The notes: a model not told the origin generated them from the letters alone. DNA of 36,643 nt from an uncultured Bacteroidales bacterium (GCA_947074165.1 CAMTOT010000001.1:1-36643), one strand, 5' to 3'; positions 6,169 to 31,440 are shown, counted from the stretch's first letter. Numbers and translations are program-made.

Positions 6169-6297
6169 GATATAAAATGAGAAATAAGTCAATATTATTT
6201 CAGCCCCATTGTAAGCAAAACTATATAGAGTTATATACAATTAACTTATTCTATACATTAATTAAAGCTATATATGGGTATAAAGCATGTAAATTGT

Positions 6298-6305
6298 TAA
6301 TTTTG
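6298..6305 (+). promoter_or_regulatory. Candidate -7 box (TAATTTTG)
   Basis: Matches TAnnTTTG, 35 nt upstream of the ATG at 6340. Confidence 0.4.
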
Positions 6306-6339
6306 TTGTATCTATATATTAACAGATTAATAATGAGAT

Positions 6340-7323
6340 ATGGTAAATAACCAATCTATAGCACATAATCCGCTCATATCGGTAATTATGCCGATATACA
6401 ATTCAGAAAAGTTTCTTGACCGTACAATAGAGGGATTGATAAATCAAAAATTTAATGATTTTGAGCTGATACTTGTCGATGACGGTTCCAAAGACTTGTC
6501 TCTTTCTATATGTAAGAAGTATGAGAAGCAGGATGTCCGTATAAAAGTGATTACTAAAGATAATGGAGGGGCTTCGTCTGCAAGAAATATCGGGATAACT
6601 GCCGCTTCCGGGAAATATATCTGTTTTATGGATAGCGATGATATCGTAAAAGATAGTTATCTCTACAATTTAATCTCTATTATAGATGATTGCGATATCG
6701 CGATGTCGCATACGATAGTTGTGAAAAAAGGAAAGGAATATGTGGCGCCCCATAAGTATGAAAAGGGGAATATTGATATATTGTTTAATCCTTATAATAT
6801 AGAATCAACTTATTCGCCGTATAATAAGCTTTTTAGAGCGGATATTGTAAAACGTGAAAATATCTGTTTTGATGAGAGAATGCACGTTGGTGAGGATAGA
6901 GTTTTTGTATATACATATCTTTTATATTCGTCGGGTGCTGTAGTATCGTCTGAGTCTGATTATTATTATGTGTTAAGAGACGGATCACTGATGTCTAAAT
7001 ATTATGATGCTGAAACAGAGCTTTACGCGTATCATGTATATTGCGGAGTTGTAAAAACATTAGTTGATAAGTTGCAGAGTGATGAAGCAAAGGTAAATCT
7101 GGAAAATACAATTAAGTACTTTTGCTACAGGTTTCTGAAAGCGCTGTATAGATCGGGCAAATCAAAGCGGGCGCAAAGATTGTCTGTTTTGTCAAACCTT
7201 GATATGGATATATATCTGAGACAGACAAATGACGTGTCGGGTATACACAGATTATATAAAATGTTGCTGAAGCGCAGGATGTATAAGACCTACGACTTTA
7301 TGAAGTCTGTAGATATTCTTTAA
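6340..7323 (+). CDS. Family-2 glycosyltransferase
   Basis: ISVIMPIYNSEKFLDRTIEGLINQ, ILVDDGSKD and FMDSDD form the classic GT2 motif set. Confidence 0.9.
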   Translation: MVNNQSIAHNPLISVIMPIYNSEKFLDRTIEGLINQKFNDFELILVDDGSKDLSLSICKKYEKQDVRIKVITKDNGGASSARNIGITAASGKYICFMDSDDIVKDSYLYNLISIIDDCDIAMSHTIVVKKGKEYVAPHKYEKGNIDILFNPYNIESTYSPYNKLFRADIVKRENICFDERMHVGEDRVFVYTYLLYSSGAVVSSESDYYYVLRDGSLMSKYYDAETELYAYHVYCGVVKTLVDKLQSDEAKVNLENTIKYFCYRFLKALYRSGKSKRAQRLSVLSNLDMDIYLRQTNDVSGIHRLYKMLLKRRMYKTYDFMKSVDIL

Positions 7324-7357
7324 AAAAAATAAAAGCTTTTATTTTGAATATAGTTAT

Positions 7358-8617: not shown

Positions 8618-8628
8618 TGTTAGATAAG

Positions 8629-8636
8629 TATCTTTG
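8629..8636 (+). promoter_or_regulatory. Candidate -7 box (TATCTTTG)
   Basis: Matches TAnnTTTG, 46 nt upstream of the ATG at 8682. Confidence 0.4.
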
Positions 8637-8681
8637 GTACAGTTCATATTTTGAAATAAATAACAAAAAAGTTAGTTTTTG

Positions 8682-10358: not shown

Positions 10359-10375
10359 TATTTATATATGTAATT

Positions 10376-11578
10376 ATGAGAAAATCATTGTTTTATGCTT
10401 CTCTTTCTATGCTTGCCGTTATGCCGGTATTTGCACAGGAGGGAGAAAGTGCTGCTAAAGAAAAAGATGGATATGTATTTACTATAGTAAAAGAAAATCC
10501 TATTACATCAATTAAAAATCAAAATCGCTCAGGTACTTGCTGGAGCTTTTCCGGACTTGGTTTTCTTGAGTCTGAGCTGATTCGAAAAGGTAAGTCTGAA
10601 ACAGACCTTGCGGAGATGTTTGTTGTTTATCATAGCTATGCGGATAAAGCTGATAAATATGTGCGAATGGACGGTAAAATAAATTTTGCTGCCGGAGGCT
10701 CTTTCTATGATGTGCTTTATGTTATGAAAAACTATGGAGCATTGCCGGAGTCTGTTTATTCCGGTATTATGTATGATGAGTCAAAGCATGTGCATAATGA
10801 ACTAGACGCGGTAACTAAAGGTTACGTTGATGGTGTGCTTACAAATAAGAAATTCACTAATGTATGGAAAAAAGGATTTAATTCAATTCTTGACGCTTAT
10901 CTTGGAGAGATACCGGAGAGATTTACATATGAAGGTAAAGAATATACTCCTAAATCGTATGCAGAGTCGCTTGGGCTTGATATGGATGATTATGTGAGCA
11001 TAACATCTTATACTCATCACCCATTCTATACGTCTTTCCCTCTTGAAATAGCGGATAACTGGCGTTGGTCTCAGTCGTATAATGTACCTCTTGATGAGAT
11101 GATGGAGATTATGGACAATGCTATTAATAACGGTTATACTATCGCATGGGGATCTGACGTTAGTGAAAAAGGATTCAACCGTAAAGGGCTTGGGGTACTT
11201 CTTGATACGGAAGGTGTAGAACTTGCCGGCTCTGACCAGGCAAGATGGTTAGGTCTTTCAAGATCTGATCGTGAAGCTGAAATAGAAAAAATGATGGAGG
11301 GTCCGGGTAATGAGCTTTCGGTAACACAGGAGTCTCGTCAGAAAGGTTATGATAATCATGAGACAACGGATGACCATGGTATGGTTATTTATGGTATCGC
11401 TAAAGATCAAACCGGTAAGAAGTTCTATATGATTAAAAACTCATGGGGAGAGACCGGTGATTATAAAGGAATATGGTATATATCTGAAAACTTTGTAAGA
11501 GCTAAAACTATGAACTATATTGTTCATAAAGATGCGCTGCCTAAGAAGATAGCAAAGAAACTTTCTATTAAACAATAA
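10376..11578 (+). CDS. C1-family cysteine peptidase (aminopeptidase C / bleomycin-hydrolase-like) with signal peptide
   Basis: The signal peptide is MRKSLFYASLSMLAVMPVFAQ. The active-site Cys context is NQNRSGTCWSFSG. The C-terminal HGMVIYG and KNSWG motifs supply the His/Asn region of papain-like enzymes. Confidence 0.85.
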   Translation: MRKSLFYASLSMLAVMPVFAQEGESAAKEKDGYVFTIVKENPITSIKNQNRSGTCWSFSGLGFLESELIRKGKSETDLAEMFVVYHSYADKADKYVRMDGKINFAAGGSFYDVLYVMKNYGALPESVYSGIMYDESKHVHNELDAVTKGYVDGVLTNKKFTNVWKKGFNSILDAYLGEIPERFTYEGKEYTPKSYAESLGLDMDDYVSITSYTHHPFYTSFPLEIADNWRWSQSYNVPLDEMMEIMDNAINNGYTIAWGSDVSEKGFNRKGLGVLLDTEGVELAGSDQARWLGLSRSDREAEIEKMMEGPGNELSVTQESRQKGYDNHETTDDHGMVIYGIAKDQTGKKFYMIKNSWGETGDYKGIWYISENFVRAKTMNYIVHKDALPKKIAKKLSIKQ

Positions 11579-11592
11579 GATTGTATTCACAT

Positions 11593-11633
11593 AAAAAAAT
11601 GAGTCAGGATTTAATATCCTGACTCATTTTTTT
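11593..11633. terminator. Bidirectional rho-independent terminator between convergent genes
   Basis: A perfect 12-bp stem atgagtcaggat (11599-11610) / atcctgactcat (11616-11627) has a 5-nt loop. It is flanked by an A-run upstream and a T-run downstream. Confidence 0.8.
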
Positions 11634-11655
11634 ATCTCTTTAATTTAATATGATC

Positions 11656-12624
11656 TTACAGAAGAAGCTTAGAAACTAATTTTCCTAATCTCTCGGAAAG
11701 AGAGAAAGCATGGAATAGCCTTTTCATGTTTTTTCCTGTCACATTAGTAAGTTCCGGGTAGCGGTTCATAATGTGCAGAGCCTCTTTGCTTCTTTCTTTA
11801 GCGGAATCAAAACACCTGTATTTAAAGCATCTTGAAATTGACTGAAGTCTGAGACAGTCGATACTCTCTTCTAATTTAGAGTATTCGGGTTTGTCTTTAA
11901 GGAAGTTGCGTATAATCTCAGGATAAGTGTGAAGATCAAAATACTGCTTCTCGGTAAGTGAGTATAGTTTCTCTTCAGGATTTTTCCTGATATAGTGATG
12001 CAATATAGGCGCGCTGTCGAGCTTAACTACTTTTTTAGAATAGTACGCAAGCTGAGTGGTGAGAAGAGTATCTTCACCAAGAAATAGTTTAGCTTCGAAA
12101 TGGATTTTAAATTTTTTGTATAAAGAGCGTTTATGGAATACGCTCCATACCATCCAATAGTTCTCTCTCTGATAAAGAGTACGGATGAAATCAATGCCTG
12201 AAAGACGAACAAATTTTATTGATCTTGACTGTTTCGTTGTATTATTATATTCATTTTCGACAACGAAGTTGAGTACGACCATATCAGCGTCAGCTTCTTC
12301 TGCTCTGTTGTAAAGAAGTTCAAGCGCATTGCTTTCAAGACGGTCATCTCCGTCAAGATGATATATATACTTTCCGCTGGCCATGTTTAGGCCGGCCTGG
12401 CGGGCAAGAGATAATCCCAGCTCCTCTTTATTGAGGATTATGATACGTGGGTCTTTATCCATCTCCGTACAAATAATCTCTTTTGTATTATCTGTACTTC
12501 CTCCTTCAACAACAATTATTTCTATCTCCTGTAGAGTTTGCATCATTACCGAATTGAGGCAGGCTTTTATATGTTTTGCCTGATTAATTACGGGAATAAT
12601 CACTGAAACTTTAACAGCTTCCAT
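11656..12624 (-). CDS. Family-2 glycosyltransferase
   Basis: VSVIIPVINQAKHIKACLNSVMMQT, IIVVEGGSTDNT and HLDGDD are GT2 motifs. Confidence 0.9.
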   Translation of the reverse strand: MEAVKVSVIIPVINQAKHIKACLNSVMMQTLQEIEIIVVEGGSTDNTKEIICTEMDKDPRIIILNKEELGLSLARQAGLNMASGKYIYHLDGDDRLESNALELLYNRAEEADADMVVLNFVVENEYNNTTKQSRSIKFVRLSGIDFIRTLYQRENYWMVWSVFHKRSLYKKFKIHFEAKLFLGEDTLLTTQLAYYSKKVVKLDSAPILHHYIRKNPEEKLYSLTEKQYFDLHTYPEIIRNFLKDKPEYSKLEESIDCLRLQSISRCFKYRCFDSAKERSKEALHIMNRYPELTNVTGKNMKRLFHAFSLSERLGKLVSKLLL

Positions 12625-12905
12625 ATTGCATTTGAATAAATTTATACTAACAAGTTGTTATTTATTCAGGTATAAGATTAAGAGTAATGGCGACAAATAT
12701 ATATCATTTTTGATTAATAACATCATTTGCCTTGTATATTCTTGCAATATAATATCTTAAACAACGCGTATCTGTGTTAAAATGCCATATCCTTTTTGCT
12801 GCCCCGGCTGAGTCGTTTTGCAAAAATGAACTTAATAATAATCAGTTGCGTTTATGATTGTAGAAAGATTGTTGTTTTTTAATTCAATATAAAGGTAAAC
12901 TAAGG

Positions 12906-13943
12906 ATGGGACAGAATAAGCGGGTGTTGATTGATTGCGACAAAGTGAAGTATAACAATACAGGGTTATACACTTTTTGTATGGAGTTGTCTAAAGCTTT
13001 GGCTGTGATAGGTGATGATTATAATGTCACTCCCCGTTTTCTTGTAAAGAAAAAAAATGCCGAGCTATTTGATTATGCTGATGTGAGGGTACTTAATATT
13101 CTTGATTCGGGTTTCTTCAGGTGCAGGGAAGATATATTTCATGCCACTTTCCAGTTTTGTAAATATATCCCCACGAATAAGAAATATATTCTCACTATAC
13201 ATGATTTAAACTTTCTGTATGAGAAAGACGAATCTAAATTCGCTAAATACTTTAATCGAATAAGCAAAGTTGTGAGCAGGGCGTCTCATGTTGTATTTAT
13301 CTCTGATTTTGTAAGACAGGATTTTATGAGAATATTTGGTTCTCTCCATTGCAAATCGTCAGTGATATATAATGGATGTACTTTGTTCAACAGAGAGCCG
13401 GTAAAGAGTCCGTCAGGATATGTTCCGTCAAAAGAATTCTTGTTTACAGTGGCAACTGTTCTGCCAAAGAAGAATTTTCATGTTCTGCCGTGCCTGATTA
13501 AGAATAGTGATTTTGAGCTTGTCATTGCAGGTAAGTTGAGTGATTACAGTAAGACTATAATCGATGAGGCAGAAAAATATGGTGTCAGAGACCGGGTGAA
13601 GCTTATTGGCGAGATCAATGAAGCTGATAAAGACTGGTATTACAGAAACTGTAAGGCCTTTGTATTTCCTTCTATTGCTGAAGGATTTGGATTGCCGGTG
13701 ATAGAGGCCCTGGCTTATGGCAAACCAACGTTTATATCATTACATACAGCGCTGCCAGAGATAGGCGGTAAGTATTGTTATTATTTCAACTATAAATTTG
13801 AACCGGAGAAAATGATTAAAGAGTTTGAATCCGGTATGAATGATTTCCAGAAAAGAGATGTAAGTGATCAAATCAAATATGCGCAATCTTTTACATGGGA
13901 AAAAGCGGCGAAGGAGTACTGTCGGATCTACAATAGCATCTAA
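12906..13943 (+). CDS. Family-4 (GT-B, group 1) glycosyltransferase
   Basis: The C-terminal FVFPSIAEGFGLPVIEALAYGKP is the EX7E motif of GT4 enzymes. Length and layout are typical. Confidence 0.85.
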   Translation: MGQNKRVLIDCDKVKYNNTGLYTFCMELSKALAVIGDDYNVTPRFLVKKKNAELFDYADVRVLNILDSGFFRCREDIFHATFQFCKYIPTNKKYILTIHDLNFLYEKDESKFAKYFNRISKVVSRASHVVFISDFVRQDFMRIFGSLHCKSSVIYNGCTLFNREPVKSPSGYVPSKEFLFTVATVLPKKNFHVLPCLIKNSDFELVIAGKLSDYSKTIIDEAEKYGVRDRVKLIGEINEADKDWYYRNCKAFVFPSIAEGFGLPVIEALAYGKPTFISLHTALPEIGGKYCYYFNYKFEPEKMIKEFESGMNDFQKRDVSDQIKYAQSFTWEKAAKEYCRIYNSI

Positions 13944-14971
13944 ACCGGTATTTCCATAACTTTATAAATCCTGTTTATGATATGTGATACAGCAAGCTCT
14001 TTCATGCATGGATAATCTCCGCGCATACACGCTTTATTGCCATATACAGAGCATGGACGGCACTCCATATCTACCCCAAGCGCATTTTCGTGTTTTTGAT
14101 TCCATCCAAGGAATCCGGCATATGGATGTGTAGCTCCCCAGATAGAAATAACAGGTGTATTTACCAACGACGCGAAATGCATATTAGCAGAGTCCATAGA
14201 GACCATAAGATCAAGATGCGACATAAGTTCTATCTCCTGAGATATCTTTAATTTTCCAGCAAGAGAAATTGTGTTGTCGTACTTCTCAACCCAACTGTCA
14301 AGTATATTCTTTTGTTCTTTATCGGCACCAAACAGAAGTATTTTGATGCTATTATCCGCAGATAATGTTTTAATTATCTCTTCGCATTTATCAATAGGAT
14401 AAGTTTTGCCCGTATGTTTTGCAAACGGCGCAATGCCTACCCATTTCCCGTCTTTATTGTCTATTACCGGGTTGTTCAACTGTGGTTTTTCGTTATTATA
14501 TACTGATTGGAAATCAAGTTCAAACTGTAGACCTATACGTCTGAACGCATCAGCATACCTCTCAAAAGAAGTTTTGAGAGGTTTTATATTATTAAAATCA
14601 GAAGATACGAGATCTTTTTTCTCTTTCCGCCCTTTATCAATAGCTACTGTTTTTACTCCTTTCAGACTAAAAAACGCGCGAATGGCTTTAGATCTGATAA
14701 CATTGTGCAAATCAACAATAGCATCATATCTGTTTTTATTCAGATCATTGCATAGATAAAGAATACCCTTTGAGCCTTTGTATTGCGCTTTAGTATCAGC
14801 CTTAAAAATTCTGACATTTGAAGGCGGGTTAATAAAAAAGTTTGCTGAAAAAGGCTGGGTTAATACTGTAAATGTTATCTGTGGATTATATTTAGCCACA
14901 GAATATATAACCGGTATAGTCATGGCCACATCTCCCAATGCGGACATACGAATTACAAGTATGTTCTTCAT
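13940..14971 (-). CDS. Family-9 glycosyltransferase (LPS heptosyltransferase family)
   Basis: The N-terminus MKNILVIRMSALGDVAMTIPVIYS is the GT9 hallmark. GK.YP, the DS..MH segment (MVSMDSANMHFA) and PCSVYG-type motifs are also present. Confidence 0.85.
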   Translation of the reverse strand: MKNILVIRMSALGDVAMTIPVIYSVAKYNPQITFTVLTQPFSANFFINPPSNVRIFKADTKAQYKGSKGILYLCNDLNKNRYDAIVDLHNVIRSKAIRAFFSLKGVKTVAIDKGRKEKKDLVSSDFNNIKPLKTSFERYADAFRRIGLQFELDFQSVYNNEKPQLNNPVIDNKDGKWVGIAPFAKHTGKTYPIDKCEEIIKTLSADNSIKILLFGADKEQKNILDSWVEKYDNTISLAGKLKISQEIELMSHLDLMVSMDSANMHFASLVNTPVISIWGATHPYAGFLGWNQKHENALGVDMECRPCSVYGNKACMRGDYPCMKELAVSHIINRIYKVMEIPV

Positions 14972-20189: not shown

Positions 20190-20236
20190 AAAAAGAGCAA
20201 CGGAATAATATACAATATTCCATTGCTCTTTTTTTT
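20190..20236. terminator. Bidirectional rho-independent terminator (rnc / pfkA convergent)
   Basis: Stem agagcaacggaata (20194-20207) / tattccattgctct (20216-20229) has one mismatch, which is a G-U pair on the minus-strand RNA. A-run and T-run flank it. The T-run overlaps the pfkA stop codon. Confidence 0.7.
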
Positions 20237-21260
20237 ATATATTCTCAAGATGACCAAAGCATATCCCCATCTGTTTTCCATATTCAATGAGGTCATTTCC
20301 CGGCTCAATCAACTTCAGCTTATTTGCTACGTCCTTAAGTGGTATTGATGAAATCTGACTACCCTTTACACACACCATTTTTCCGAAATCACCTTTTGAA
20401 ATCAGTTCGGTAGCATGACTGCCGAGTCTTGTCGAAAGTATTCTGTCGAAAGGAGAAGGGTTGCCCCCCCGTTGTATATGTCCCAAAACAGTTTCACGCG
20501 TATCTATACCTGTCGATTTCTTTATCATCTTTGCTATATATTCAGCAGGCTTTTTACCTTCCGGAGTCTCAATACCCTCAGCGACTACAACAATAGAATA
20601 AGGTTTTTTTCTTGCCGCCCTGAGCAGAATAAAATCATTAACATCATCAATATTATAACCCAGTTCAGGAACAAGTATTACATCGCCTCCGCCAGCCATT
20701 CCGGCATGGAGTGCAATCCACCCGGCGTGATGTCCCATAACCTCAATAACCATTACCCTTTTATGCGAGCTTGCCGTAGAGTGAAGTCTGTCTATTGCTT
20801 CTGTAGCTATATTAACAGCAGTATCAAAACCGAAAGTTATATCAGTGCCCCATATATCGTTATCTATAGTCTTCGGTACCGCTATCACATTCATTCCCAT
20901 CTCAGATATTACATTGGCAGTTTTCATGGTCCCGTTGCCACCTATGCACACTACGCAGTCAAGCCCCAGCTCATTATATGCTTTCAGAAGCTCTTCTCTT
21001 ACATTATCTTCATTGGCGGTGAGTTTTTTTCTGAACGGTTTGTCGCGTGAAGTGCCCAGTATTGTTCCTCCCAGATTAAGTATTCCTGAAAGTGATCTTT
21101 CTGTAAATGGTTCTACATCTTTATATAATATTCCCTTAAATCCGGAGTGGATGCCGATAACTTCCATCCCGTAGTGCATAATAGCGGTTTTTCCTACACC
21201 GCGTATTGTAGCGTTTATCCCGGGACAATCTCCACCTGAGGTTAAAATACCTATTCTCAT
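20235..21260 (-). CDS. pfkA: 6-phosphofructokinase (PfkA family)
   Basis: MRIGILTSGGDCPGINATIRGV, PKTIDNDI, MGHHAGW and LGHIQRGG align along the whole length with E. coli PfkA by eye. Confidence 0.9.
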   Translation of the reverse strand: MRIGILTSGGDCPGINATIRGVGKTAIMHYGMEVIGIHSGFKGILYKDVEPFTERSLSGILNLGGTILGTSRDKPFRKKLTANEDNVREELLKAYNELGLDCVVCIGGNGTMKTANVISEMGMNVIAVPKTIDNDIWGTDITFGFDTAVNIATEAIDRLHSTASSHKRVMVIEVMGHHAGWIALHAGMAGGGDVILVPELGYNIDDVNDFILLRAARKKPYSIVVVAEGIETPEGKKPAEYIAKMIKKSTGIDTRETVLGHIQRGGNPSPFDRILSTRLGSHATELISKGDFGKMVCVKGSQISSIPLKDVANKLKLIEPGNDLIEYGKQMGICFGHLENI

Positions 21261-21293: not shown

Positions 21294-21568
21294 TGAAAAT
21301 AATAGAGCCGTAAACGTCCGATTGGGTTTTTATATCATACGCGCAATGTGAAAATTAACGTCATAAACACTTTAAAAAACGAATATTTTTTAAATTTGTG
21401 CGTCGTTGAGCTGAGAGGTTGAGACGCATCTTGTTATATATAGCTTTTTTTAGTTAAATAATTAATAAACAGACGCGTCATAGAGAGAATGAGAAATGAA
21501 AAATCGCTGAATGATTGTTATATATAAGCGAGATTATTTCATTTTGTGAAAAAGATATTTACCGATTT

Positions 21569-23083
21569 ATGAATGCTACAACAAAGCTGATGTCGCTTAT
21601 TTTTTCAATGCGACTTCCTGACATAGAAAGATACAATACTGAAGCAAAGGAGATACAGAGTCAACAACTCTCGTATCTGATAGAACACGCCATTGATACA
21701 GAATGGGGTGTTGAACACAGATTCAGGGATATTGATTCTTATGAAAAGTTTAAAAAGAACGTACCTCTTCAGACGTATGATTCTCTTAAGCCGTATATAC
21801 GAAGAATGCTAGGCGGAGAGCAGAACATTCTTTGGGATACAGAGATTAAGTGGTTTGCCAAATCCTCGGGTACTACAAACGATAAAAGTAAGTTCATTCC
21901 CGTAAGTGATGACGCGCTTGATAAGTGTCATTATCAGGGAGGTAAAGACGCGGTGACTCTTTATCTCAAAATGAACCCCGAAAGCGGATTCTTTTCCGGG
22001 AAAGGTCTGGTGCTCGGAGGAAGCCATAAGCCGTCTGAGATAACGGAAGGTATCAGCTGCGGTGACCTGTCTGCGGTTTTAATCGAGAACATCAATTTTC
22101 TTGTCAACCTCATAAGAGTGCCTGATAAAATGATAGCGCTCATGGATGAATGGGAGGCAAAGCTTGAAAAGATGTGCGAGACTACCGTCAATGAGAATGT
22201 CACCAATATATCCGGAGTCCCGTCATGGTTTCTGGTGTTTATAAAAAAGATGATGGCTCAGAAAGGAAAGACCAATCTTCTTGATATATGGCCAAATCTG
22301 GAAGTGTTTTTTCACGGAGGTATAAGTTTCGAACCTTATCGTGAGGAATACAAAAAACTTATACCATCAGACAAGATGCATTACGTCGAAACTTACAATG
22401 CCTCAGAAGGATTCTTTGGTATACAAAATAGTTTTGATGAAAGATCAATGCTGCTTATGATTGACCTGGGGGTATTCTTTGAGTTTATACCTCTTGATGA
22501 GATTGATAATGAAAATCCTACCACACTACCATTGTGGGAAGTAGAAACAGATCAAAACTACGCGCTTGTCATATCTACCAACTCGGGTATGTGGCGCTAT
22601 ATAATAGGTGATACAGTTAAGTTTACATCAGCCCATCCGTATAAGTTTGTTATTACCGGACGTACCAAACATTTTATAAATGCATTTGGAGAGGAGCTTA
22701 TGGTAGCCAATGCCGAAAAAGGGATTACAGAAGCTTGTCGCCGCACCGGTGCGATAGTAAAAGAATATACTGCCGCCCCTACATATATGAATGACAACAG
22801 CAAAGGGCATCATACATGGATGATAGAGTTTTATAAAAAACCCGACGATATAGAGCAGTTTGCGGATATACTCGACGAAGAACTGCAAAACGTAAACTCA
22901 GATTATGAAGCTAAGCGATATAAAAGTTTATTTCTTTCGAGACTTGAACTTATAGAGGCCCGCGAGAATCTTTTTTATGACTGGATGGATAAAAGAGGCA
23001 AGCTCGGAGGACAGCACAAAGTACCGCGTCTGAGCAATAGCAGGGAATACCTTGAGGATCTGCTCACTATGAATAATATATAA
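21569..23083 (+). CDS. GH3-family (auxin-responsive-promoter family) acyl-adenylate-forming enzyme homologue
   Basis: FAKSSGTTNDKSKFIP (compare plant GH3 SSGTS...P), YNASEGFFG and ITGRTKHFINAFGEE are present. Size and layout match Bacteroidota GH3 homologues. I prefer the ATG at 21569 over the TTG at 21515. Confidence 0.8.
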   Translation: MNATTKLMSLIFSMRLPDIERYNTEAKEIQSQQLSYLIEHAIDTEWGVEHRFRDIDSYEKFKKNVPLQTYDSLKPYIRRMLGGEQNILWDTEIKWFAKSSGTTNDKSKFIPVSDDALDKCHYQGGKDAVTLYLKMNPESGFFSGKGLVLGGSHKPSEITEGISCGDLSAVLIENINFLVNLIRVPDKMIALMDEWEAKLEKMCETTVNENVTNISGVPSWFLVFIKKMMAQKGKTNLLDIWPNLEVFFHGGISFEPYREEYKKLIPSDKMHYVETYNASEGFFGIQNSFDERSMLLMIDLGVFFEFIPLDEIDNENPTTLPLWEVETDQNYALVISTNSGMWRYIIGDTVKFTSAHPYKFVITGRTKHFINAFGEELMVANAEKGITEACRRTGAIVKEYTAAPTYMNDNSKGHHTWMIEFYKKPDDIEQFADILDEELQNVNSDYEAKRYKSLFLSRLELIEARENLFYDWMDKRGKLGGQHKVPRLSNSREYLEDLLTMNNI

Positions 23084-23099
23084 ACATTTTTATATACAT

Positions 23100-23156
23100 A
23101 AACAGACAAAGCGGCCCGGCGATACTATAATCGTCAGGCCGCTTTGTCTGTTTACC
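23100..23156 (+). terminator. Long perfect hairpin, probable terminator of the GH3-family gene
   Basis: aaacagacaaagcggcc (23100-23116) is perfectly complementary to ggccgctttgtctgttt (23137-23153), a 17-bp stem with a 20-nt loop. Only a short T tail follows (the stem itself ends in ttt). Confidence 0.6.
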
Positions 23157-23245
23157 TCGGTGTAAAGGTGGCTAAACAGCCAAATTAGTGTATAATAACA
23201 ACACTTAATTAGCCGAATAGGCAAAAGTCATAAATATTATTCTTA

Positions 23246-23355
23246 CTTTCAAAAATCTGTGCCACGTACATGTCACGCTTCTGCCATGTACGTGGCATAA
23301 CTGTGACATGTACGTGTCTGTGTCGTGCCATGTACGTGGCAAAAGTTTTTGAAAG
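23246..23355. repeat. Array of four 16-bp TGCCA-N6-TGGCA quasi-palindromes with an exact 22-bp period, nested in a 32-nt inverted repeat
   Basis: The units start at 23260 (tgccacgtacatgtca), 23282 (tgccatgtacgtggca), 23304 (tgacatgtacgtgtct) and 23326 (tgccatgtacgtggca). The outer arms 23246-23277 and 23324-23355 are complementary at 28 of 32 positions, including ctttcaaaaa / tttttgaaag. Confidence 0.85.
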
Positions 23356-23390
23356 CATTAAATTGAAAAATGATAATAACCATTGAATAA

Positions 23391-23909
23391 ATGAAACATC
23401 CTTTAGATAAATTCAGATTTTGCCCTTCGTGCGGATCTAAGCATTTTGACGTTAATAACTCAACGTCAAAAAAGTGTGGAAAATGCGGATTTATATATTA
23501 TTTTAATCCCAAAGCAGCTACGGTAGCTGTTATTGTGAATGAAGACGACGAAATACTCGTTACTGTAAGAGCAAATGAGCCGGCAAAAGGGACGCTTGAT
23601 TTGCCGGGTGGTTTTTGCGAAAGCTATGAGACGGCAGAAGAGTCTGTCATGCGTGAGGTAAATGAGGAAACCGGAGTAGAGGTAGATTCTACAGAATATA
23701 TGTTTTCACTACCTAATATTTATCCATATTCCGGTCTTGACGTGCATACTATGGATCTGTTTTTTAAGTGCAGTGTCACAGGTTATGATATGACGGCTAT
23801 GGACGATGTAGCAGAGCTGAAATGGATACCGCTCAAAGAACTTGATGCGGAGCAGTTTGGTCTTGATTCGATTAAGAGAGGAGTTGTTAAGATTATGGAT
23901 GTTTTGTAA
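23391..23909 (+). CDS. NUDIX hydrolase with N-terminal zinc-ribbon (CxxC...CxxC)
   Basis: CPSCGSKHF...CGKCG forms a four-Cys ribbon. The NUDIX box is GGFCESYETAEESVMREVNEETG (Gx5Ex7REUxEExGU). Confidence 0.85.
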   Translation: MKHPLDKFRFCPSCGSKHFDVNNSTSKKCGKCGFIYYFNPKAATVAVIVNEDDEILVTVRANEPAKGTLDLPGGFCESYETAEESVMREVNEETGVEVDSTEYMFSLPNIYPYSGLDVHTMDLFFKCSVTGYDMTAMDDVAELKWIPLKELDAEQFGLDSIKRGVVKIMDVL

Positions 23910-24013: not shown

Positions 24014-27000
24014 ATGAAAAAACTTATTCCGATCTGTGTTTTAGTAGCAGGAATAGGAGGAACGGCAACAGCACAAAACGGCCATACCATTAATCCGGGA
24101 GAAAAGATTCTCGGAGAAGCAAAGGTTATGTTTAATGCCCGCAACTGGACAGGCTGTACCGATAAGATCTCTTTGCTTAAACAATCCGGCACGGCTGCCG
24201 GTATGGTTGACCTGCTTGAAGAGGCCGATTATATGCTTACGGTATCACGTTTCGAATTGGGAAACGAAGACGCGCTTGATTATCTATTGGAATTTAAATA
24301 TAAATATCCAAATTCGTCATATAGTACAATAATAGAGTTTCTAACAGGTAGTTTTTACTTCTTCAACGGCTCTTATGCCGATGCGGCGGCTACACTTGAT
24401 GAGGTGGATATGGTACAGTTACCACTTATTAATCAGCCTGCATATCTTAACCGACTTGGTATTTCTAATATAAAGAGAGGGAACACTACAGAGGCGCGCC
24501 CATGTTTCATCGCTCTTAAATCGTTCAACTCTGAATATTCCGAATCATCAGATTATTATCTTGCATATATAGATTACCTTAATGGTGATTACGACAAAGC
24601 ACTTAAAGAGTTTGAGGCTTTGCCTGCAAATGAAGAATTTTCATTTAGCGTGCCTTATTATATCGCGCAGATTAAGTTTATAAAGAAAGAATATGGCACA
24701 GCGCTTAGCAGTGCCGAATCGTTGCTGAAGAATAATCCCGACAGGGAGCAGAAAACCGAGTTGCTTCGCATTGCCGGTGAATCTTCATATCATCTGAATA
24801 AAAAAAGAGACGCGGTAAAATATCTTACAGACTACAGTAATAGTACGTCGCGCCCATACAGAGCTACATCTTATATACTTGGTATGGCAGCCTACGAGGC
24901 CGGCGAATACAAAACGGCTGTAGATAATTTTGCTGTAGTTACTACGGGCAATGATGCGACGACACAGAATTCATATCTGCATCTGGGGCATTGCTACGTG
25001 CAGACGGGTGATTTGAAAAATGCTCGTATGGCATTTGAAGCAGCGGCAAACAGCGATTTTGACAAGAAAGTGAAAGAGGTGGCTATGTATAACTACGGTT
25101 TGACTATCGTACAGACGTCATACTCTCCTTTTAATGAGTCGGTACAGGTGTTTGAAGTGTTTCTGAATGAGTTTCCGTCTTCTGAATATTCTGATTTTGT
25201 AAACGATCAGCTGGTTGAGGCGTATATGACTACCCGCAACTATGAGAGCGCGCTTAACTCAATCAATAAAATTAAACGTCCGGGTTCTAAAATACTTACC
25301 GCTAAACAACGAGTTTTGTTTCAGCTGGGAACGCAGTGTGTTGTCAACTCAGAAGGAAGCAAGGCTAAAGAATGTTTTACAAACGCTATAAGCCTTGGCC
25401 CTTTGAATAACGAGACTCTTGCCCAGGCTTACTTCTGGAGAGCGGAGTGTTATTATAAAGAAGATGCTTTCACTCAGGCTACATCAGACTATAATCGCTT
25501 CCTGACTATTTCCGGAAGAAAAAATACAGAGATGTACGCTTTAGGTAAATATAATCTGGCGTACTCTTATTTCAAACAGCACGATTTCAATAATGCCATA
25601 ACATGGTTTGATAGTTATCTTCAGACTCCAACGGAGAGAGGAAAGGCTACATATATTGACGCGCTCAATCGTATCGGAGATTCACACTTCTATAAAAGGT
25701 CGTTTGCTAAAGCCGAAGGGTATTATTCGCAGGCGGCATCTTTAAGTCCTAACGGAGGCGATTACGCTCTGTTTCAGAAAGGATTTATGGCAGGTCTTCA
25801 GAAAAAATATACACAGAAGATTGACGCGATGGATAAGCTGCTTAAAGAGTATCCGGATTCTGATTACGCTGATGATGCCCTTATGGAGCGAGGTAAAACT
25901 TACGTGACGCTTGGCAAAAAACAGGAAGCAATCGCGTCGTTTACAAAAGTAGCGTCGGATTATCCAACCACGACTCTGGCTCGTCAGGCTTGTATTCAGC
26001 TCGGCATGATATATTTTAATATGAATGAACTTGACAAGTCTGTCAAGGCTTATAAAGATGTCATATCAAAATACCCGGGAAGTGAAGAAGCCCGTATAGC
26101 TGTAGAAGACCTTAAGGCTGTGTATATAGAGAAAAATGATATACCGTCGTATGCGGAGTATGTTAAGTCGCTTAATGGCGTGGTGCAGTTTGCTGCCGGA
26201 GAACAAGACTCACTTACATTCCTTGCCACAGAGAAAGTCGTAATACGCGGAGACAAGGATAATAGTAAAAAGGCTCTGATCAATTATCTCCAAAGCTTTA
26301 ATGACGGAGCTTTCCGTATGAACGCCAACATTGAGCTTGCGAGGATTTATGAATCAGAACAAGATTATACATCGGCTGTGACTCACTATCAGTATATACT
26401 TCAGTCTGCTGATAATAAATATACGGAAGAGGCATTGTCAAAATGCGCTGATATATATTACGCGACGCAACAGATGCAGGAGGCGCTTGACACTTATTCG
26501 ACTCTTGCTGTAAAGGCGGAGAAAACAGAAAACAGAGTGAAGGGTAAAGCTGGTATACTGAGAGCTAACGTAGCACTTAACCGTCATGACGACATAACAG
26601 TAGCAGCTACAAACCTGCTTAAAGATGATAAAATCACTACGGAACTATATTCTGAAGCGCTTTATTGCAGAGCAAAAGCATTCCTTGCGAAAGGAAACGT
26701 AGAGGCGGCTAAACCCGATTTAAAAGATCTTTCTAAAGACACACGTCTTAACTATGGCGCTGAAGCTAAATATCTGATAGCCGAAGAACTGTTTAAAGAG
26801 GGTAAAGATAACGACGCTGAAGCAGTAGTATTTGAACTAATAGAGTCGGCTACGCCACATCAGTATTGGCTTGCTAAAGGATTTATTCTGCTTGCCGATA
26901 TTTATATTGGTAAAGATGATTTGTTCCAGGCACGTCAATATCTGTCAAGTCTTCAGACAAATTATAAAGCTAATGATGAGATTGGCACTCTGATAGATGA

Positions 27001-27052
27001 ACGTTTTAAAGTGATTTCTGAGAAAGAGGAATCTAAACAGTTAGGAGAGTAA
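24014..27052 (+). CDS. Large exported tetratricopeptide-repeat protein (YbgF/BamD-like TPR units), function unknown
   Basis: The signal peptide is MKKLIPICVLVAGIGGTATAQ. TPR-like units recur along 1012 aa, for example AQAYFWRAECYYKEDAFTQA, YALGKYNLAYSYFKQHDFNNAITWF and DDALMERGKTYVTLGKKQEAIASF. Confidence 0.8.
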   Translation: MKKLIPICVLVAGIGGTATAQNGHTINPGEKILGEAKVMFNARNWTGCTDKISLLKQSGTAAGMVDLLEEADYMLTVSRFELGNEDALDYLLEFKYKYPNSSYSTIIEFLTGSFYFFNGSYADAAATLDEVDMVQLPLINQPAYLNRLGISNIKRGNTTEARPCFIALKSFNSEYSESSDYYLAYIDYLNGDYDKALKEFEALPANEEFSFSVPYYIAQIKFIKKEYGTALSSAESLLKNNPDREQKTELLRIAGESSYHLNKKRDAVKYLTDYSNSTSRPYRATSYILGMAAYEAGEYKTAVDNFAVVTTGNDATTQNSYLHLGHCYVQTGDLKNARMAFEAAANSDFDKKVKEVAMYNYGLTIVQTSYSPFNESVQVFEVFLNEFPSSEYSDFVNDQLVEAYMTTRNYESALNSINKIKRPGSKILTAKQRVLFQLGTQCVVNSEGSKAKECFTNAISLGPLNNETLAQAYFWRAECYYKEDAFTQATSDYNRFLTISGRKNTEMYALGKYNLAYSYFKQHDFNNAITWFDSYLQTPTERGKATYIDALNRIGDSHFYKRSFAKAEGYYSQAASLSPNGGDYALFQKGFMAGLQKKYTQKIDAMDKLLKEYPDSDYADDALMERGKTYVTLGKKQEAIASFTKVASDYPTTTLARQACIQLGMIYFNMNELDKSVKAYKDVISKYPGSEEARIAVEDLKAVYIEKNDIPSYAEYVKSLNGVVQFAAGEQDSLTFLATEKVVIRGDKDNSKKALINYLQSFNDGAFRMNANIELARIYESEQDYTSAVTHYQYILQSADNKYTEEALSKCADIYYATQQMQEALDTYSTLAVKAEKTENRVKGKAGILRANVALNRHDDITVAATNLLKDDKITTELYSEALYCRAKAFLAKGNVEAAKPDLKDLSKDTRLNYGAEAKYLIAEELFKEGKDNDAEAVVFELIESATPHQYWLAKGFILLADIYIGKDDLFQARQYLSSLQTNYKANDEIGTLIDERFKVISEKEESKQLGE

Positions 27053-27056
27053 AAGG

Positions 27057-28832
27057 ATGAATAAAAAGAATATATATCTGGCAACAGCCGCATTGTGCGT
27101 GACCTCTTATGTTTCAGCCCAGCAGGCTGCTAAGGACTCGACTCTGAGCCGTGAGATGCTTATTGAAAAAGAGTTTATACCGATAGTAAGAGATGCCAAT
27201 AAGATAAATAAACTGCCGGAAGTGGAGACTCCGGCAGTAAGCAAAGCAAAAACCGTATATTCGACTACCTCGGTATCCGCATCACCGGCACCGGAGATAG
27301 CACAGCTTAGTTCGGGTGACATTAAAACTCTTTATCCATATAGCAATAAGCGTGGTTATCTCGGGCTTGGTTCGGGTAATACATCTGTCTTCAACGCTGA
27401 TCTTGGTTATAGAATACTTGATACAAAGTCAGATTATCTTGGATTGTTTTATAATATGAATATTATATCCGCGAAACTTGATTATGTAGATTTTGACGGT
27501 AAAACCACAAAGAAGGTCACTGATAATATTGGTAAGGCTTATTATAAACATAACTTCTCAAACTGGTCTTTATTTACTGATCTTGGACTTGACTTCTATC
27601 ATTTCAATTATTATGGTTATGATAAGACAGCTATAGACCGTCTTGATGAGAATGTGATAAGCGAAAATGGCAAGCTGATGCAGGATCAGACCCGTGTCAC
27701 ATACAACTTAGGCTTTAAAACCGATATGGACGGCGATTTCAATCATCACGGAAATGTGGGTATTGTATCGTTTTCTCAGAAAAAATACAAACTGTCAGAG
27801 ACAGCGCTTAAGTTCGGATACGGTTTTGACTATAAGATTAATGAGGACACTAAGTTCCTGTTTGACGCAGGCGTAAATACACAGATGTACGGAGGGGCTT
27901 ACTCTGACTATTATAAAACGTCGGGAGTGATAAGAGTAACTCCGGGATTCCTTTATAATAATGACGCTGAATCATTTGTGATAAAAGGAGGTATTAATTT
28001 TGATGTGGCATACGGAAGAGGTTCTAAATTCGGAATATCTCCTACGCTGGATCTAAACTATGCTTTTGTCGAAAAGACATCTCTATATGCGACGGCTACG
28101 GGTCGTGTATCGGCGTTTTCATTAAGTGATGCCGCGTATACGAGCAGATATGTTTTAATGCCCGATGAGCAGGCTAAAAACAGCTATACGGTAACAGACT
28201 TTACATTCGGTCTTCGTTCTGATAAGGTGGCAGGACTGTTTTATGATATTTACGCGGGTCTTTCTTATACAGCCAATGAAAGATTTATATATTCGGATAT
28301 ACTGGGAATGTATATCTCGGATAGTGAAGATAATATATACGCGCTTAACAATAGAAACGCTCTGAGTGTAGGTAGTGAAAGTTCATTCGGATGGAAGATT
28401 GGGGCTGCTTTAAAATATGAAACAGGTATTTTCAGAAGTGGTCTGCGATTAGAGTACTCCGATAGAGCCAAAGATTATGTTAATTCAGGCAGAAGTAAGT
28501 TTGAAATGGGGCTTAATCTTGGTGTTCAACCGACAGAAGACTGGCTTATAGAGGCTGACTGGAATCTTTACGCCGGACGTAAAATAGTAGTGAGAGAGAG
28601 TATTAATCTTGTAGACGAATCAGATTCATCTGCATCCTCAATTATCGGAAATGTAAGTGATGTATCGCTAAAACCGATTAATGAACTTAATCTGAAAGCA
28701 AGCTACACTATAAATAGTACAATCTCAGCTTATGCCGGTTTATATAATATAGTAAATCAGAAATATGACCTTTATTACGGTATGCCGGCAGAAGGTTTTA
28801 ATTTTAAAGTGGGGGCTGTCGTAAACTTCTGA
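27057..28832 (+). CDS. Predicted outer-membrane beta-barrel protein, function unknown
   Basis: The signal peptide ends in VSAQQ. The sequence is rich in alternating aromatic/Gly/Asn/Asp segments. The C-terminus is FNFKVGAVVNF, with a terminal Phe as in an OMP beta-signal. The start lies 4 nt after the TPR gene stop. Confidence 0.6.
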   Translation: MNKKNIYLATAALCVTSYVSAQQAAKDSTLSREMLIEKEFIPIVRDANKINKLPEVETPAVSKAKTVYSTTSVSASPAPEIAQLSSGDIKTLYPYSNKRGYLGLGSGNTSVFNADLGYRILDTKSDYLGLFYNMNIISAKLDYVDFDGKTTKKVTDNIGKAYYKHNFSNWSLFTDLGLDFYHFNYYGYDKTAIDRLDENVISENGKLMQDQTRVTYNLGFKTDMDGDFNHHGNVGIVSFSQKKYKLSETALKFGYGFDYKINEDTKFLFDAGVNTQMYGGAYSDYYKTSGVIRVTPGFLYNNDAESFVIKGGINFDVAYGRGSKFGISPTLDLNYAFVEKTSLYATATGRVSAFSLSDAAYTSRYVLMPDEQAKNSYTVTDFTFGLRSDKVAGLFYDIYAGLSYTANERFIYSDILGMYISDSEDNIYALNNRNALSVGSESSFGWKIGAALKYETGIFRSGLRLEYSDRAKDYVNSGRSKFEMGLNLGVQPTEDWLIEADWNLYAGRKIVVRESINLVDESDSSASSIIGNVSDVSLKPINELNLKASYTINSTISAYAGLYNIVNQKYDLYYGMPAEGFNFKVGAVVNF

Positions 28833-28962: not shown

Positions 28963-31440
28963 ATGCCCAAAAATTTAGTAATTGTCGAATCCCCGGCTAA
29001 AGCGAAAACCATAGAAAAGTTTCTCGGAAAGGATTATCATGTGCTATCGAGCTACGGTCATATCAGGGACCTGAAGAAGAAAGACTTTAGTATAGATATC
29101 GAACATGGATTTGCGCCGATATATGAGATTCCGGCAGACAAAAAGGAGCTTGTGGCTAAACTTAAGTCGGAAGCGGATAAAGCCGATATGGTATGGCTGG
29201 CATCCGATGAGGACCGCGAAGGGGAGGCGATAGCATGGCATCTTTATGAAGTTTTGGGACTTAATCCTGAGAATACAAAACGTATTGTATTTCATGAGAT
29301 TACAAAGAACGCTATTCTTAAGGCTATTGAGAATCCGCGTGATATAAATATAAATCTTGTAGACGCTCAGCAGGCAAGACGTGTTCTTGACCGTATTGTG
29401 GGTTTTGAACTTTCTCCTGTATTGTGGAAGAAAGTTAAACCTGCATTGTCGGCCGGTCGTGTACAGTCGGTAGCTGTAAGACTTATTGTAGAGAGAGAAC
29501 GTGAGATTGAGGCTTTTGTGCCTGAAGCTGCATACAGAGTAATAGCGGTGTTCTTAATCAAACAGCCAAACGGAAAAACTACCGAGCTTAAAGCGGAACT
29601 TAATACAAGATATAAAACAAAAGAGGAGGCTTACGCTTTCCTTGAAAAATGTAACGGGGCGCAGTTTAAAATTGAATCGGTAACTAAAAAACCGGGCAAA
29701 AAATCGCCTGCCGCACCTTTTACAACATCTACCTTACAGCAGGAAGCTTCACGAAAACTTGGTTATTCGGTATCGCAGACAATGATGGTATCTCAGAAAC
29801 TTTATGAATCGGGATTTATCACATATATGCGTACTGACTCGGTAAACCTGTCGTCGCTTGCAATCAATGCCTCTAAAGAGGAGATCGTAAATACGATGGG
29901 CGAAGAGTATCTGCATATTCGTCAGTTTCAGACTAAAGCTAAAGGCGCGCAGGAAGCTCACGAGGCTATCCGACCTACATATATGAGTAATCATCAGATA
30001 GAGGGAACGTCGCAGGAGAAAAAGCTTTACGAACTGATCTGGAAACGCACTATCGCCTCTCAAATGAGCGACGCTATCCTAGAGAAGACTACAGTAGATA
30101 TATCTGTGTCGGGAGCATCTGAGAAATTTACGGCTGTAGGAGAAGTTATTAAGTTTGACGGTTTCCTTAAAGTTTACATTGAATCTACAGACGACGACGA
30201 CAGCAAAGACTCTGACGGTAAGATGCTGCCACCACTTAATGAGGGTGAGGTTCTTAACATGAAAGATGTTACCGCGACGGAAAGATTTACTCAACGTCCG
30301 GCAAGATACTCGGAAGCAAGTCTTGTGCGTAAGATGGAGGAGCTTGGTATTGGTCGTCCGTCAACGTATGCTCCTACTATTTCTACTATTCAAAACAGAG
30401 AATATGTTGAGAAAACAGAGATAGAAGGAAAAGAGAGATCTTATAATCAAATGAGTCTTTCGCAGGGGCACATTGAAGATAAAACGCTTACGGAGATAAC
30501 CGGCGCGGATAAAGGAAAAATGAAACCGACTGATATAGGTATCATAGTAAATGATTTCCTGACGGAGCATTTCCCTGATATTCTTAACTATAACTTTACG
30601 GCTCTTGTAGAACAGGAATTTGACCATGTAGCCGAAGGTACTCTTGACTGGACTAAGTCGCTTGATAGTTTCTATAAGCTGTTTCATCCGAATGTAGTGG
30701 AAACACTGGCTTTGAGAACAGAGCAGAAGGTTGGTGAAAGGATACTTGGTCTGGATCCTAAAACGGGTCGCCAGGTCTCTGTTAAGATTAGCCGTTTCGG
30801 TCCTGTGGTTCAGATTGGCAAACAGGATGAAGAGGAAAAACCGCTTTTCGCTTCGTTGCTGAAAGGTCAGTCTATCACTAATATTACCCTTGAGGAAGCG
30901 CTTAAACTTTTTGATCTGCCGCGTCAGCTTGGCGAGTATGAAGGTAAAGTAGTTACAGTTGGTATAGGTCGTTTCGGTCCGTACATTCGTCATGACTCAA
31001 AGTATGTGTCTTTGCCTAAAGAGTATGCTCCGATGGCAGTCACTCTTGATGAGGCTATAATTCTTATAGAAGAGAAGAGAAAAGCAGAGAAAGAGAAGTT
31101 TATTAAGAGTTTTGCAGAGAATGAGAATTTGCAGATTCTAAACGGTCGTTTCGGTCCGTATATTACTCTTGACAAGAATAACTATAAGATACCAAAAGGT
31201 ACTGAGCCAATATCTTTGACATACGAAGAGTGTATGAAGATTATTTCTGAGGCCGGAGAGCCGAAAAAGGCAAAAGGAAGAGGAGCTAAGACAAAAGCGG
31301 CTGAGGCGAAAGCTGCCAAAGAACCTAAAGCGGCGAAAGAGCCAAAAGCGGCTAAGACTGCCAAAGCGAAGACTGCTAAGGCTAAGAGCGATAAGCCTGC
31401 GGCTAAAACGACAAAGACTGCGAAGGCTAAAAAAGCGTAA
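28963..31440 (+). CDS. topA: DNA topoisomerase I (type IA) with Zn-free C-terminal repeats and a Lys/Ala-rich tail
   Basis: The Toprim N-terminus is LVIVESPAKAKTIEKFLG and DEDREGEAIAWH. The active-site region is GFITYMRTDS. There are three C-terminal RFGPxV/Y repeats, ISRFGPVVQ, GRFGPYIRH and GRFGPYITL. The tail at 31261-31437 is AKEPKA-like. Confidence 0.95.
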   Translation: MPKNLVIVESPAKAKTIEKFLGKDYHVLSSYGHIRDLKKKDFSIDIEHGFAPIYEIPADKKELVAKLKSEADKADMVWLASDEDREGEAIAWHLYEVLGLNPENTKRIVFHEITKNAILKAIENPRDININLVDAQQARRVLDRIVGFELSPVLWKKVKPALSAGRVQSVAVRLIVEREREIEAFVPEAAYRVIAVFLIKQPNGKTTELKAELNTRYKTKEEAYAFLEKCNGAQFKIESVTKKPGKKSPAAPFTTSTLQQEASRKLGYSVSQTMMVSQKLYESGFITYMRTDSVNLSSLAINASKEEIVNTMGEEYLHIRQFQTKAKGAQEAHEAIRPTYMSNHQIEGTSQEKKLYELIWKRTIASQMSDAILEKTTVDISVSGASEKFTAVGEVIKFDGFLKVYIESTDDDDSKDSDGKMLPPLNEGEVLNMKDVTATERFTQRPARYSEASLVRKMEELGIGRPSTYAPTISTIQNREYVEKTEIEGKERSYNQMSLSQGHIEDKTLTEITGADKGKMKPTDIGIIVNDFLTEHFPDILNYNFTALVEQEFDHVAEGTLDWTKSLDSFYKLFHPNVVETLALRTEQKVGERILGLDPKTGRQVSVKISRFGPVVQIGKQDEEEKPLFASLLKGQSITNITLEEALKLFDLPRQLGEYEGKVVTVGIGRFGPYIRHDSKYVSLPKEYAPMAVTLDEAIILIEEKRKAEKEKFIKSFAENENLQILNGRFGPYITLDKNNYKIPKGTEPISLTYEECMKIISEAGEPKKAKGRGAKTKAAEAKAAKEPKAAKEPKAAKTAKAKTAKAKSDKPAAKTTKTAKAKKA

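Follow-up and report, generated by a model that had tools for sequence, protein, structure and literature searches.

Phased extragenic palindromes form a dispersed family in Bacteroidales and may serve as protein-docking arrays

Introduction

Repetitive extragenic palindromes (REPs) and bacterial interspersed mosaic elements (BIMEs), found in Escherichia coli and other Proteobacteria, are short, imperfect palindromes arranged in regular arrays next to genes of any orientation, with lineage-specific variants, variable unit number, and an association with rearrangement junctions. BIMEs are docking sites for IHF, gyrase, and Pol I. Much the same description fits a 110-bp element at positions 23246-23355 of the DNA analyzed here (the window: 36,643 bp, 38% G+C, from an uncultured Bacteroidales bacterium; GCA_947074165.1, CAMTOT010000001.1:1-36643), together with its relatives in other Bacteroidales. 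This element is one copy of a dispersed family of extragenic phased palindromes with a conserved dyad core and a rigid register of two helical turns, and the family is not gene-specific. The element lies shortly before a NUDIX gene; an original prediction, made before any database search, had read it as either a cooperative multi-dimer operator array or a structured leader or small RNA.

Several other described systems resemble the arrays in part. The lambda OR1-3 sites and the paired ARG boxes of ArgR (about 21 bp) comprise three or four dyad sites of 16-18 bp with centers about two helical turns apart, which places dimers on one face of the DNA; however, they belong to defined promoters with a regulator nearby or to a conserved regulon, whereas the arrays described here occupy unrelated contexts, including convergent spacers. 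Plasmid iterons and centromere repeats (R6K, RK2, and pSC101; ParR sites) similarly load several protein copies onto three to seven repeats with a 20-22-bp period, but these are direct, nonpalindromic repeats by rep or par genes on plasmids, whereas the present arrays are chromosomal, dyad-symmetric, and multi-locus; the neighbors of the window element are housekeeping genes, and the element has no BLAST similarity to plasmid and phage collections. Enterobacterial repetitive intergenic consensus sequences or intergenic repeat units (ERIC/IRU) and Correia-type repeats are imperfect palindromes of about 100-130 bp in intergenic, often transcribed DNA, with terminal inverted repeats and a moderate copy number in some hosts, but they have no internal 22-bp dyad periodicity, and any one genome carries nearly identical copies of them. 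TA target duplications accompany Correia elements, whereas no target duplication of any kind was seen on reading the edges of the arrays here.

The GTAG and CGTC tags of REPs are used here as defined in a survey that names Bacteroidetes solely for CGTC repeats (PMC3733652), and a census of MITEs (miniature inverted-repeat transposable elements) treats Bacteroidota in general terms (PMC11602168). Of the features expected of a MITE, the window element has terminal inverted repeats (10/10), while neither a target-site duplication nor near-identical copies at many sites were found.

Results

The window element is an imperfect palindrome in which an array of four phased dyad units, spanning 23260-23341, is bracketed by a terminal inverted repeat (Table 1). 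The start-to-start step is exactly 22 bp, as first described, and a repeat finder run independently recovered both this spacing (22/22) and the whole-array inverted repeat. Units 2 and 4 are identical, unit 1 is their reverse-oriented counterpart with one mismatch, and unit 3 is degenerate in its flanks with an intact core, while the spacers between units all differ (CGCTTC, TAACTG, and GTGTCG). The unit is best described as a 10-bp dyad core, CAYGTACRTG, with complementary TGC/GCA flanks; the non-palindromic TGTACG core of the original prediction is better replaced by this dyad, in which asymmetry is confined to the Y/R pair. Recomputation upheld the fully paired brackets, the outer 32-nt arms (complementary at 28/32 positions), and the stem between units 1 and 3 (23263-23276 with 23303-23316; 14/14 paired), whereas pairing between units 1 and 2, which does exist, extends over 15/16 positions rather than the 12 bp first claimed. 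The distance of 49 nt to the NUDIX ATG (23391) holds for the end of unit 4 and becomes 35 nt from the end of the bracket.

The window array is not a chance occurrence. All four copies of CAYGTACRTG in the 36,643-bp window lie inside it, against 0.11 expected from base composition, and all seven both-strand matches to the 16-mer with ≤3 mismatches fall at the four unit positions (shuffled control: mean 0.10 matches, maximum 2). As RNA, either strand is predicted to form a single long hairpin (-56.9 kcal/mol, z -6.6, and -51.2 kcal/mol, z -6.95), so the proposed folding check returned a strong predicted hairpin with no strand preference. The predicted DNA fold of the element reaches -33.5 kcal/mol (z -8.2), and unit 4 as a local hairpin merely -7.3 kcal/mol.

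A scan of metagenome contigs for two cores in register (CAYGTACRTG-N12-CAYGTACRTG) returned at least 120 loci, which clustered by flanking sequence into at least 53 sites. At least about 30 of the 53 are intergenic arrays of 2-6 in-phase units on gut or rumen Bacteroidales contigs, and among the remainder are simple 22-bp satellites of other environmental origin. Flanking proteins with exact matches identified the hosts as Parabacteroides distasonis, Phocaeicola plebeius and P. coprocola, Segatella copri, Bacteroides thetaiotaomicron, and B. faecis, along with other Bacteroides and Parabacteroides. Viral contigs yielded four loci, none of them array-like. The exact 16-mer behaved differently: when compared with one genome per prokaryotic species (185k), the matches listed were single ones across unrelated phyla with no second copy (≤3 mismatches) nearby, which is what chance predicts, so the 16-mer itself is not a repeat across the genomes covered, which did not extend to the source genome. 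Rather, it is the core-plus-22-bp architecture that recurs, at dozens of unrelated intergenic sites. This comes close in spirit to the generic REP-like repeat that the original prediction had envisaged should hundreds of unrelated sites appear, though at dozens of sites and not by way of the exact 16-mer.

The family is apparently undescribed. It has no Rfam 15 entry, and no description was found in the searchable literature on its core sequences or on Bacteroidales repeats. Against Rfam 15 the window element matched hairpin-like miRNA models only, at 15-24 bits versus cut-offs of 76-100, and the arrays of 12 related loci had no match; the original prediction had likewise recognized no known riboswitch in the element.

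Among the loci listed, arrays contain two to six units and usually three or four. The unit is AAAACAYGTACRTGTTTT in Parabacteroides, with the palindromic spacer TTTTCNNGAAAA and flanks AAAA/TTTT; GACACGTACGTGTC in Phocaeicola, with the spacer ACGAGnnCTCGT and flanks GA/TC plus CGAGG; and GGTACCCATGTACGTGGGTAC in Segatella, with the flank GGTAC. In the B. thetaiotaomicron group it takes the form GGTTCAC...GTGAACC, with outer ends cGTTTCAC / GTGAAACg and flanks GTT/AAC, as compared with TGCCA...TGGCA in the window. The flanks (4-5 bp on each side of the core) are thus lineage-specific yet mutually complementary, and the spacers are unrelated between lineages. Across the 32 arrays listed, 55/59 core-to-core intervals are 22 bp, about one per array being forced by the search pattern; three, in which a middle unit has decayed, are 44 bp, and the last is 21 bp. 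Several Parabacteroides arrays (e.g., L125, L143, and L165) have YTTTSAAAAA / TTTTTSAAAR ends similar to the brackets of the window element. The array-free parts of these loci (274 kb) contained 16 one-mismatch cores, at or below chance by a back-of-envelope estimate, with no pairs and no second array.

Dyad pairing is maintained across the family. In 102 distinct units, 74% of nine-pair cells pair, versus 57% after shuffling and 33-46% when the partner is slid, and double-sided changes number 219 versus 109 expected, with all four pair types present at flank positions 1-4. The Y/R pair is C-G in 48 units, U-A in 20, U-G in 19, and a non-pair (C-A) in about 15. The covariation check thus confirmed that pairing is kept but gave no RNA-type excess of G-U over C-A, and this near equality, together with the equal folding of both strands, indicates that the units have no strand polarity. 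Within species, variable columns make up 2.8% of cores, 5.4% of spacers, and 10.1% of flanks, with sampling that favors the cores. Two Bacteroides species that agree at about 70% of an intergenic spacer both retain four units in the 22-bp register, with 35/40 core and 25/36 spacer positions identical.

All of the approximately 32 arrays examined lie between open reading frames (ORFs), with flanking gene pairs in tandem (about 14), convergent (5), or divergent (7) orientation at the sites listed, and several begin 11-42 nt past a stop codon. The 60 neighboring proteins at 32 sites fall into 95 Pfam families, none seen more than twice, and include ClpB, RelA/SpoT, PurH, IspG, FtsK, MutS, a GyrA/ParC-type protein, SurE, glycosidases, and TonB receptors; no orthologous neighbors are common to different lineages among the sites listed. 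The array next to ispG (L134/L215) belongs to B. thetaiotaomicron. One neighbor is a PDDEXK_2 transposase-like protein, but neither Y1 nor other transposases are enriched beside arrays, and the REP-associated tyrosine transposase (RAYT) is not among the 25 commonest Pfam families of the 60 neighbors. At two P. distasonis sites, a gene for a 522-aa protein with AAA-ATPase_like and PDDEXK_9 nuclease-superfamily domains lies about 70-165 nt downstream of the array (L136:2548-4116 and L194:1777-3345). The two proteins are 51% identical, and no such gene occurs beside the arrays of other lineages or in the window; the adjacency may be coincidental or may be a lead to a partner protein.

The arrays turn over between close species. 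The spacer between the polyferredoxin and FtsK genes holds three units in P. distasonis and four in an 88%-identical relative, while in an 82% relative with the gene order kept the array is absent and an ordinary hairpin stands in its place. One P. distasonis array sequence is found with two flank pairs that are unrelated to each other (L146 and L220), and in four cases contigs agree in one flank and diverge in the other from a point at or inside the array; such arrays mark apparent rearrangement junctions. Unit number also varies (3 vs 5 and 4 vs 6). Within one genome, spacers diverge by 20-30% from copy to copy, which gives no sign of a recent burst, and no consistent direct repeat indicative of a target-site duplication was seen on reading the array edges. 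A contig of the window's own strain begins with GTGACTGGAGTTCAGACGTGTGCTCTTCCGATCT, which we take to be Illumina adapter sequence, joined straight onto the array region at its left edge (L003:1-45), suggesting that reads or assemblies break at the palindrome.

Association with the NUDIX gene is not conserved. Five other contigs (L001-L005) with an identical NUDIX protein also carry a 100% identical array, but these represent the same strain and provide no comparative signal. In the closest distinct relative (L006; NUDIX 83% identity, NUDIX-TPR pair kept), the upstream spacer is unrelated and has no array, and there is likewise none upstream of NUDIX in L007 (68% identity, NUDIX-TPR pair kept) or L009 (65% identity). 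The conservation in orthologous upstream regions that the original prediction proposed to look for is therefore absent, and the array is not a conserved part of NUDIX regulation. Among the loci listed, no homologues of NUDIX, GH3, or TPR proteins lie beside related arrays. In L009 and L010 (65% NUDIX identity), the genes directly adjoining NUDIX encode a PfkB kinase and an S41 peptidase homologous (68%) to those of the window, whereas in the window the corresponding genes (97-1134 and 8679-10358) are 13-23 kb away, a difference that marks the upstream boundary of NUDIX as a synteny breakpoint.

The named homologues of the window proteins are proteins of Bacteroidales metagenome-assembled genomes. 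The "GH3" neighbor named by the original prediction is a GH3 protein in the sense of the acyl-acid-amido-synthetase family and not of the glycoside hydrolases, and scores 412 bits against the OlsH lyso-ornithine-lipid synthetase model (cut-off 620). The hairpin that follows it, 17 nt past the GH3 stop, has 24-nt arms (92% complementary; z -11) with a short T-run only behind; it is separate from the array and may be a terminator or a transcript-stabilizing hairpin. Between the GH3 stop and the NUDIX start (23084-23395), the coding strand has no Bacteroidetes-type -7 box (TAnnTTTG), and sigma-70-type promoter matches are at chance level, while unit 4 plus the following T-run scores as a terminator-like site. 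Elsewhere in the window, a run of glycosyltransferase genes (1985-14971; GT2, GT11, GT4, GT9, core-2/I-branching, and a Kdo/WaaP-like kinase fusion) looks like a lipopolysaccharide or surface-glycan locus.

Table 1. Positions of the phased-palindrome element, its parts, and the surrounding features in the window
Feature	Position	Strand	Description
Phosphofructokinase	20235-21260	-	
GH3-family OlsH-like acyl-amido synthetase	21515-23083	+	Not glycoside hydrolase
Very stable hairpin	23100-23153		-40.5 kcal/mol
Phased-palindrome array, whole element	23246-23355		Inverted repeat I1: 52-nt arms, 77% complementary
Left bracket CTTTCAAAAA	23246-23255		10/10 complementary to 23346-23355
Unit 1 TGCCACGTACATGTCA	23260-23275		Core 23263-23272 = CACGTACATG; Y/R orientation opposite to units 2-4
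Unit 2 TGCCATGTACGTGGCA	23282-23297		Core 23285-23294
Unit 3 TGACATGTACGTGTCT	23304-23319		Core 23307-23316 intact; flanks degenerate
Unit 4 TGCCATGTACGTGGCA	23326-23341		Core 23329-23338; identical to unit 2
Right bracket TTTTTGAAAG	23346-23355		Partner of left bracket
NUDIX protein	23391-23909	+	172 aa; N-terminal zinc ribbon
TPR protein	24014-27052	+	1012 aa
591-aa protein	27057-28832	+	No Pfam match
Topoisomerase	28963-31440	+	

Three further features were seen near arrays at other loci. A Phocaeicola array located between the 3' ends of relA/spoT and ssrA has a tmRNA gene (L127:11551-11947; 131 bits) about 190 nt away. About 300 nt from another array (L134:~4090-4160, and L237 on the reverse strand) is an intergenic block in which two Bacteroides species are nearly 100% alike; TTATTATCACC occurs there three times as a direct repeat, with a period of about 11-13 bp, and once inverted, as GGTGATAATAG, and the block resembles a further protein-binding array. 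Downstream of a polyferredoxin gene in a Parabacteroides-related contig (L251:3520-3620), a GGTTGCTCCGAG-like sequence of about 12 bp is repeated in tandem about six times; it is unrelated to the array family.

Discussion

The exact two-turn spacing of dyads across lineages with unrelated spacers is what same-face binding by a dimeric protein predicts, and this register suggests, as do the perfect symmetry of the core and the absence of strand polarity, that the arrays are read as double-stranded DNA. Dispersal, turnover, variable unit number, and lineage variants meanwhile liken them to REPs and BIMEs, which are also protein-docking arrays. We therefore favor, with a probability of roughly 0.5, a REP/BIME-like dispersed palindromic array that acts as DNA, namely as a same-face docking platform for a putative dimeric protein. 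Several dimers of one conserved, sequence-specific protein would bind side by side on the same helical face, and the arrays would be gained, lost, expanded, and contracted as REP/BIME-type extragenic palindromes are. In kind, then, the cooperative multi-dimer array of the original prediction fared well, but not as a NUDIX regulatory element. The arrays are filed here as working like BIME-type docking arrays rather than as members of the REP/BIME class, because the GTAG/CGTC tag is lacking in the window element, no RAYT turned up in the window or among the commonest families of neighbors, conservation falls on the dyad center rather than the foot, and a genome seems to carry about ten arrays, compared with hundreds of REP units. 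They further differ in unit length (16-20 bp vs 20-40 bp in REPs), in their rigid 22-bp register, and in their host phylum, Bacteroidota.

A number of observations weigh against this interpretation. The search demanded two perfect cores 22 bp apart, which inflates core conservation and makes other spacings invisible, and exceptions to the spacing do occur (a 17-bp step in L247 and a 21-bp step in L137). A second array with the TGCCA/TGGCA flanks of the window was not recovered among the matches listed. No transcription factor or other regulator, transposase, or recombinase is encoded among the proteins of the 36.6-kb window, and no neighbor family is enriched at the 32 sites. Complementary flanks fit single-stranded DNA or RNA hairpins as well as they fit symmetric protein contacts. 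The flank-swap evidence is weak, since the contigs are short-read assemblies, often at low coverage, in which repeats can cause chimeric joins. Finally, P. distasonis seems to have about 10 strict-pattern sites, as judged by re-finding frequency among the loci listed, whereas classical REPs number in hundreds.

Because the flanks are complementary, a hairpin mechanism is retained as the main rival. The arrays would then be selfish REP-, REPIN- (REP doublet forming hairpins), or MITE-like elements whose units form single-stranded DNA hairpins, with CAYGTACRTG as loop and upper stem and the variable flanks as lower stem, that an HUH (RAYT-like) or other transposase would recognize, cut, and copy, with no binding of double-stranded DNA and no host benefit. 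Such elements would account for flank covariation that preserves pairing, for arrays that are extragenic, dispersed, and lineage-specific in sequence, and for the presence of one array at two unrelated sites, the differences in unit number between strains, and the gain or loss between the 88% and 82% relatives. The perfect 10-bp terminal inverted repeat of the window element and the single PDDEXK_2 neighbor are also compatible with them. We nonetheless consider a selfish origin of this kind possible but rather unlikely, since recognition of hairpins needs no exact 22-bp step across unrelated spacers, the hairpin of a single unit is weak, the window element lacks the REP tags, and no consistent target-site duplication was seen at the array edges inspected. 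Beside the arrays there is no enrichment of the transposases that would be required, the spacer divergence within a genome and a copy number seemingly near 10 are unlike a burst or the hundreds of copies of REPs, and neither phage and plasmid collections nor viral contigs yielded any array.

Alternatively, the element could act as RNA, whether as a NUDIX leader, a GH3 3' untranslated region, or a small RNA, in which pairings 1:2, 1:3, and 1:4 or the long hairpin control termination, stability, or translation. The strong predicted fold, the alternative pairings, the terminator-like score of unit 4, and the position of several related arrays shortly past a stop codon all agree with this, and the absence of a consensus promoter between GH3 and NUDIX would permit read-through transcription of the array. 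However, folding is as good on the minus strand as on the plus, G-U shows no excess over C-A, arrays also lie between divergent genes, Rfam gives no match, and an RNA would have no obvious need for an exact 22-nt register; GTACGTG is also in none of the B. thetaiotaomicron 50-nt sequences upstream of transcription start sites (TSSs) that are listed, a weak point. The leader or small RNA of the original prediction thus gained no positive support and seems improbable. More doubtful still is a local operator at which transcription-factor dimers repress or activate a NUDIX(-TPR) operon. Phased palindromes are the classic form of an operator, and the array sits 35-49 nt before the start codon, where a promoter would be, but it is missing upstream of the NUDIX orthologues, from 83% identity down to 65%, there is no TAnnTTTG promoter in the spacer or regulator gene in the window, and related arrays occur in convergent spacers and, among the loci listed, never beside a NUDIX, GH3, or TPR homologue. 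Functionless tandem duplication of a 22-bp segment (a minisatellite) is a very improbable explanation: plain 22-bp satellites in non-Bacteroidales contigs (L167, L173, L148, and L161) indicate that such arrays arise by slippage, but the window spacers differ, unit 1 is inverted, and the core recurs in at least five Bacteroidales lineages and varies less than the spacers and flanks do. Cross-lineage conservation largely refutes this explanation.

Comparison with other known elements led to further rejections. Units of 16 bp separated by 6 bp (cores of 10 bp separated by 12 bp) do not constitute a clustered regularly interspaced short palindromic repeat (CRISPR) array, in which repeats are 23-47 bp with unique spacers of similar length. 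The ParB site parS (TGTTNCACGTGAAACA) has six mismatches to its best match in the array, whose core has GTAC between CAC and GTG, and sigma-54 promoters, the SlmA binding site (SBS), and matS do not match on sequence comparison. Bacteroides invertase repeats (consensus ARACGTWCGT) stand in inverted orientation at the two ends of a segment of about 150-250 bp that can be flipped; the best matches to this consensus have two mismatches, and the units here are 22 bp apart and not paired around a segment. The apparent similarity of ACGTACGT to the inverted repeats of the Bacteroides Mpi invertase serves only as a lead. The B. thetaiotaomicron promoter motif PM2 is near-palindromic, with elements at -10 and -30, and is reported at hundreds of TSSs (PMC7366714); this frequency, together with the absence of GTACGTG from the TSS-upstream sequences listed, argues against identity with the arrays.

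For the NUDIX locus, a dispersed docking array implies that the position of the element 49 nt before the gene is incidental and that the element is not a NUDIX-specific regulator. An occupied array could still have a secondary, local effect as a roadblock, an insulator, or an occluder of a promoter between the upstream gene and NUDIX; speculatively, a protein-laden or cruciform-prone palindrome of 110 bp could block read-through from GH3 or occlude such a promoter. The practical message for the window is that it contains no demonstrated dedicated regulator site for NUDIX.

More broadly, we tentatively suggest, as a rather unlikely extension, that the arrays are the chromosomal cis-sites of a conserved, undescribed Bacteroidales DNA-binding system, perhaps a nucleoid-organizing or occlusion factor or else a site-specific recombination system with dimers gathered on the 2-6 in-phase CAYGTACRTG dyads of about ten or more intergenic loci per genome, with the lineage-specific flanks recording co-evolution of protein and site. 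Annotators should be cautious not to treat such arrays as gene-specific operators or riboswitch-like leaders, and the arrays may explain some of the synteny and assembly breaks in Bacteroidales genomes. If the family is real, it would represent a conserved and easily recognized noncoding element in the dominant order of human gut bacteria, including the model species B. thetaiotaomicron, and its 10-bp core would offer a concrete bait for a putative DNA-binding protein.

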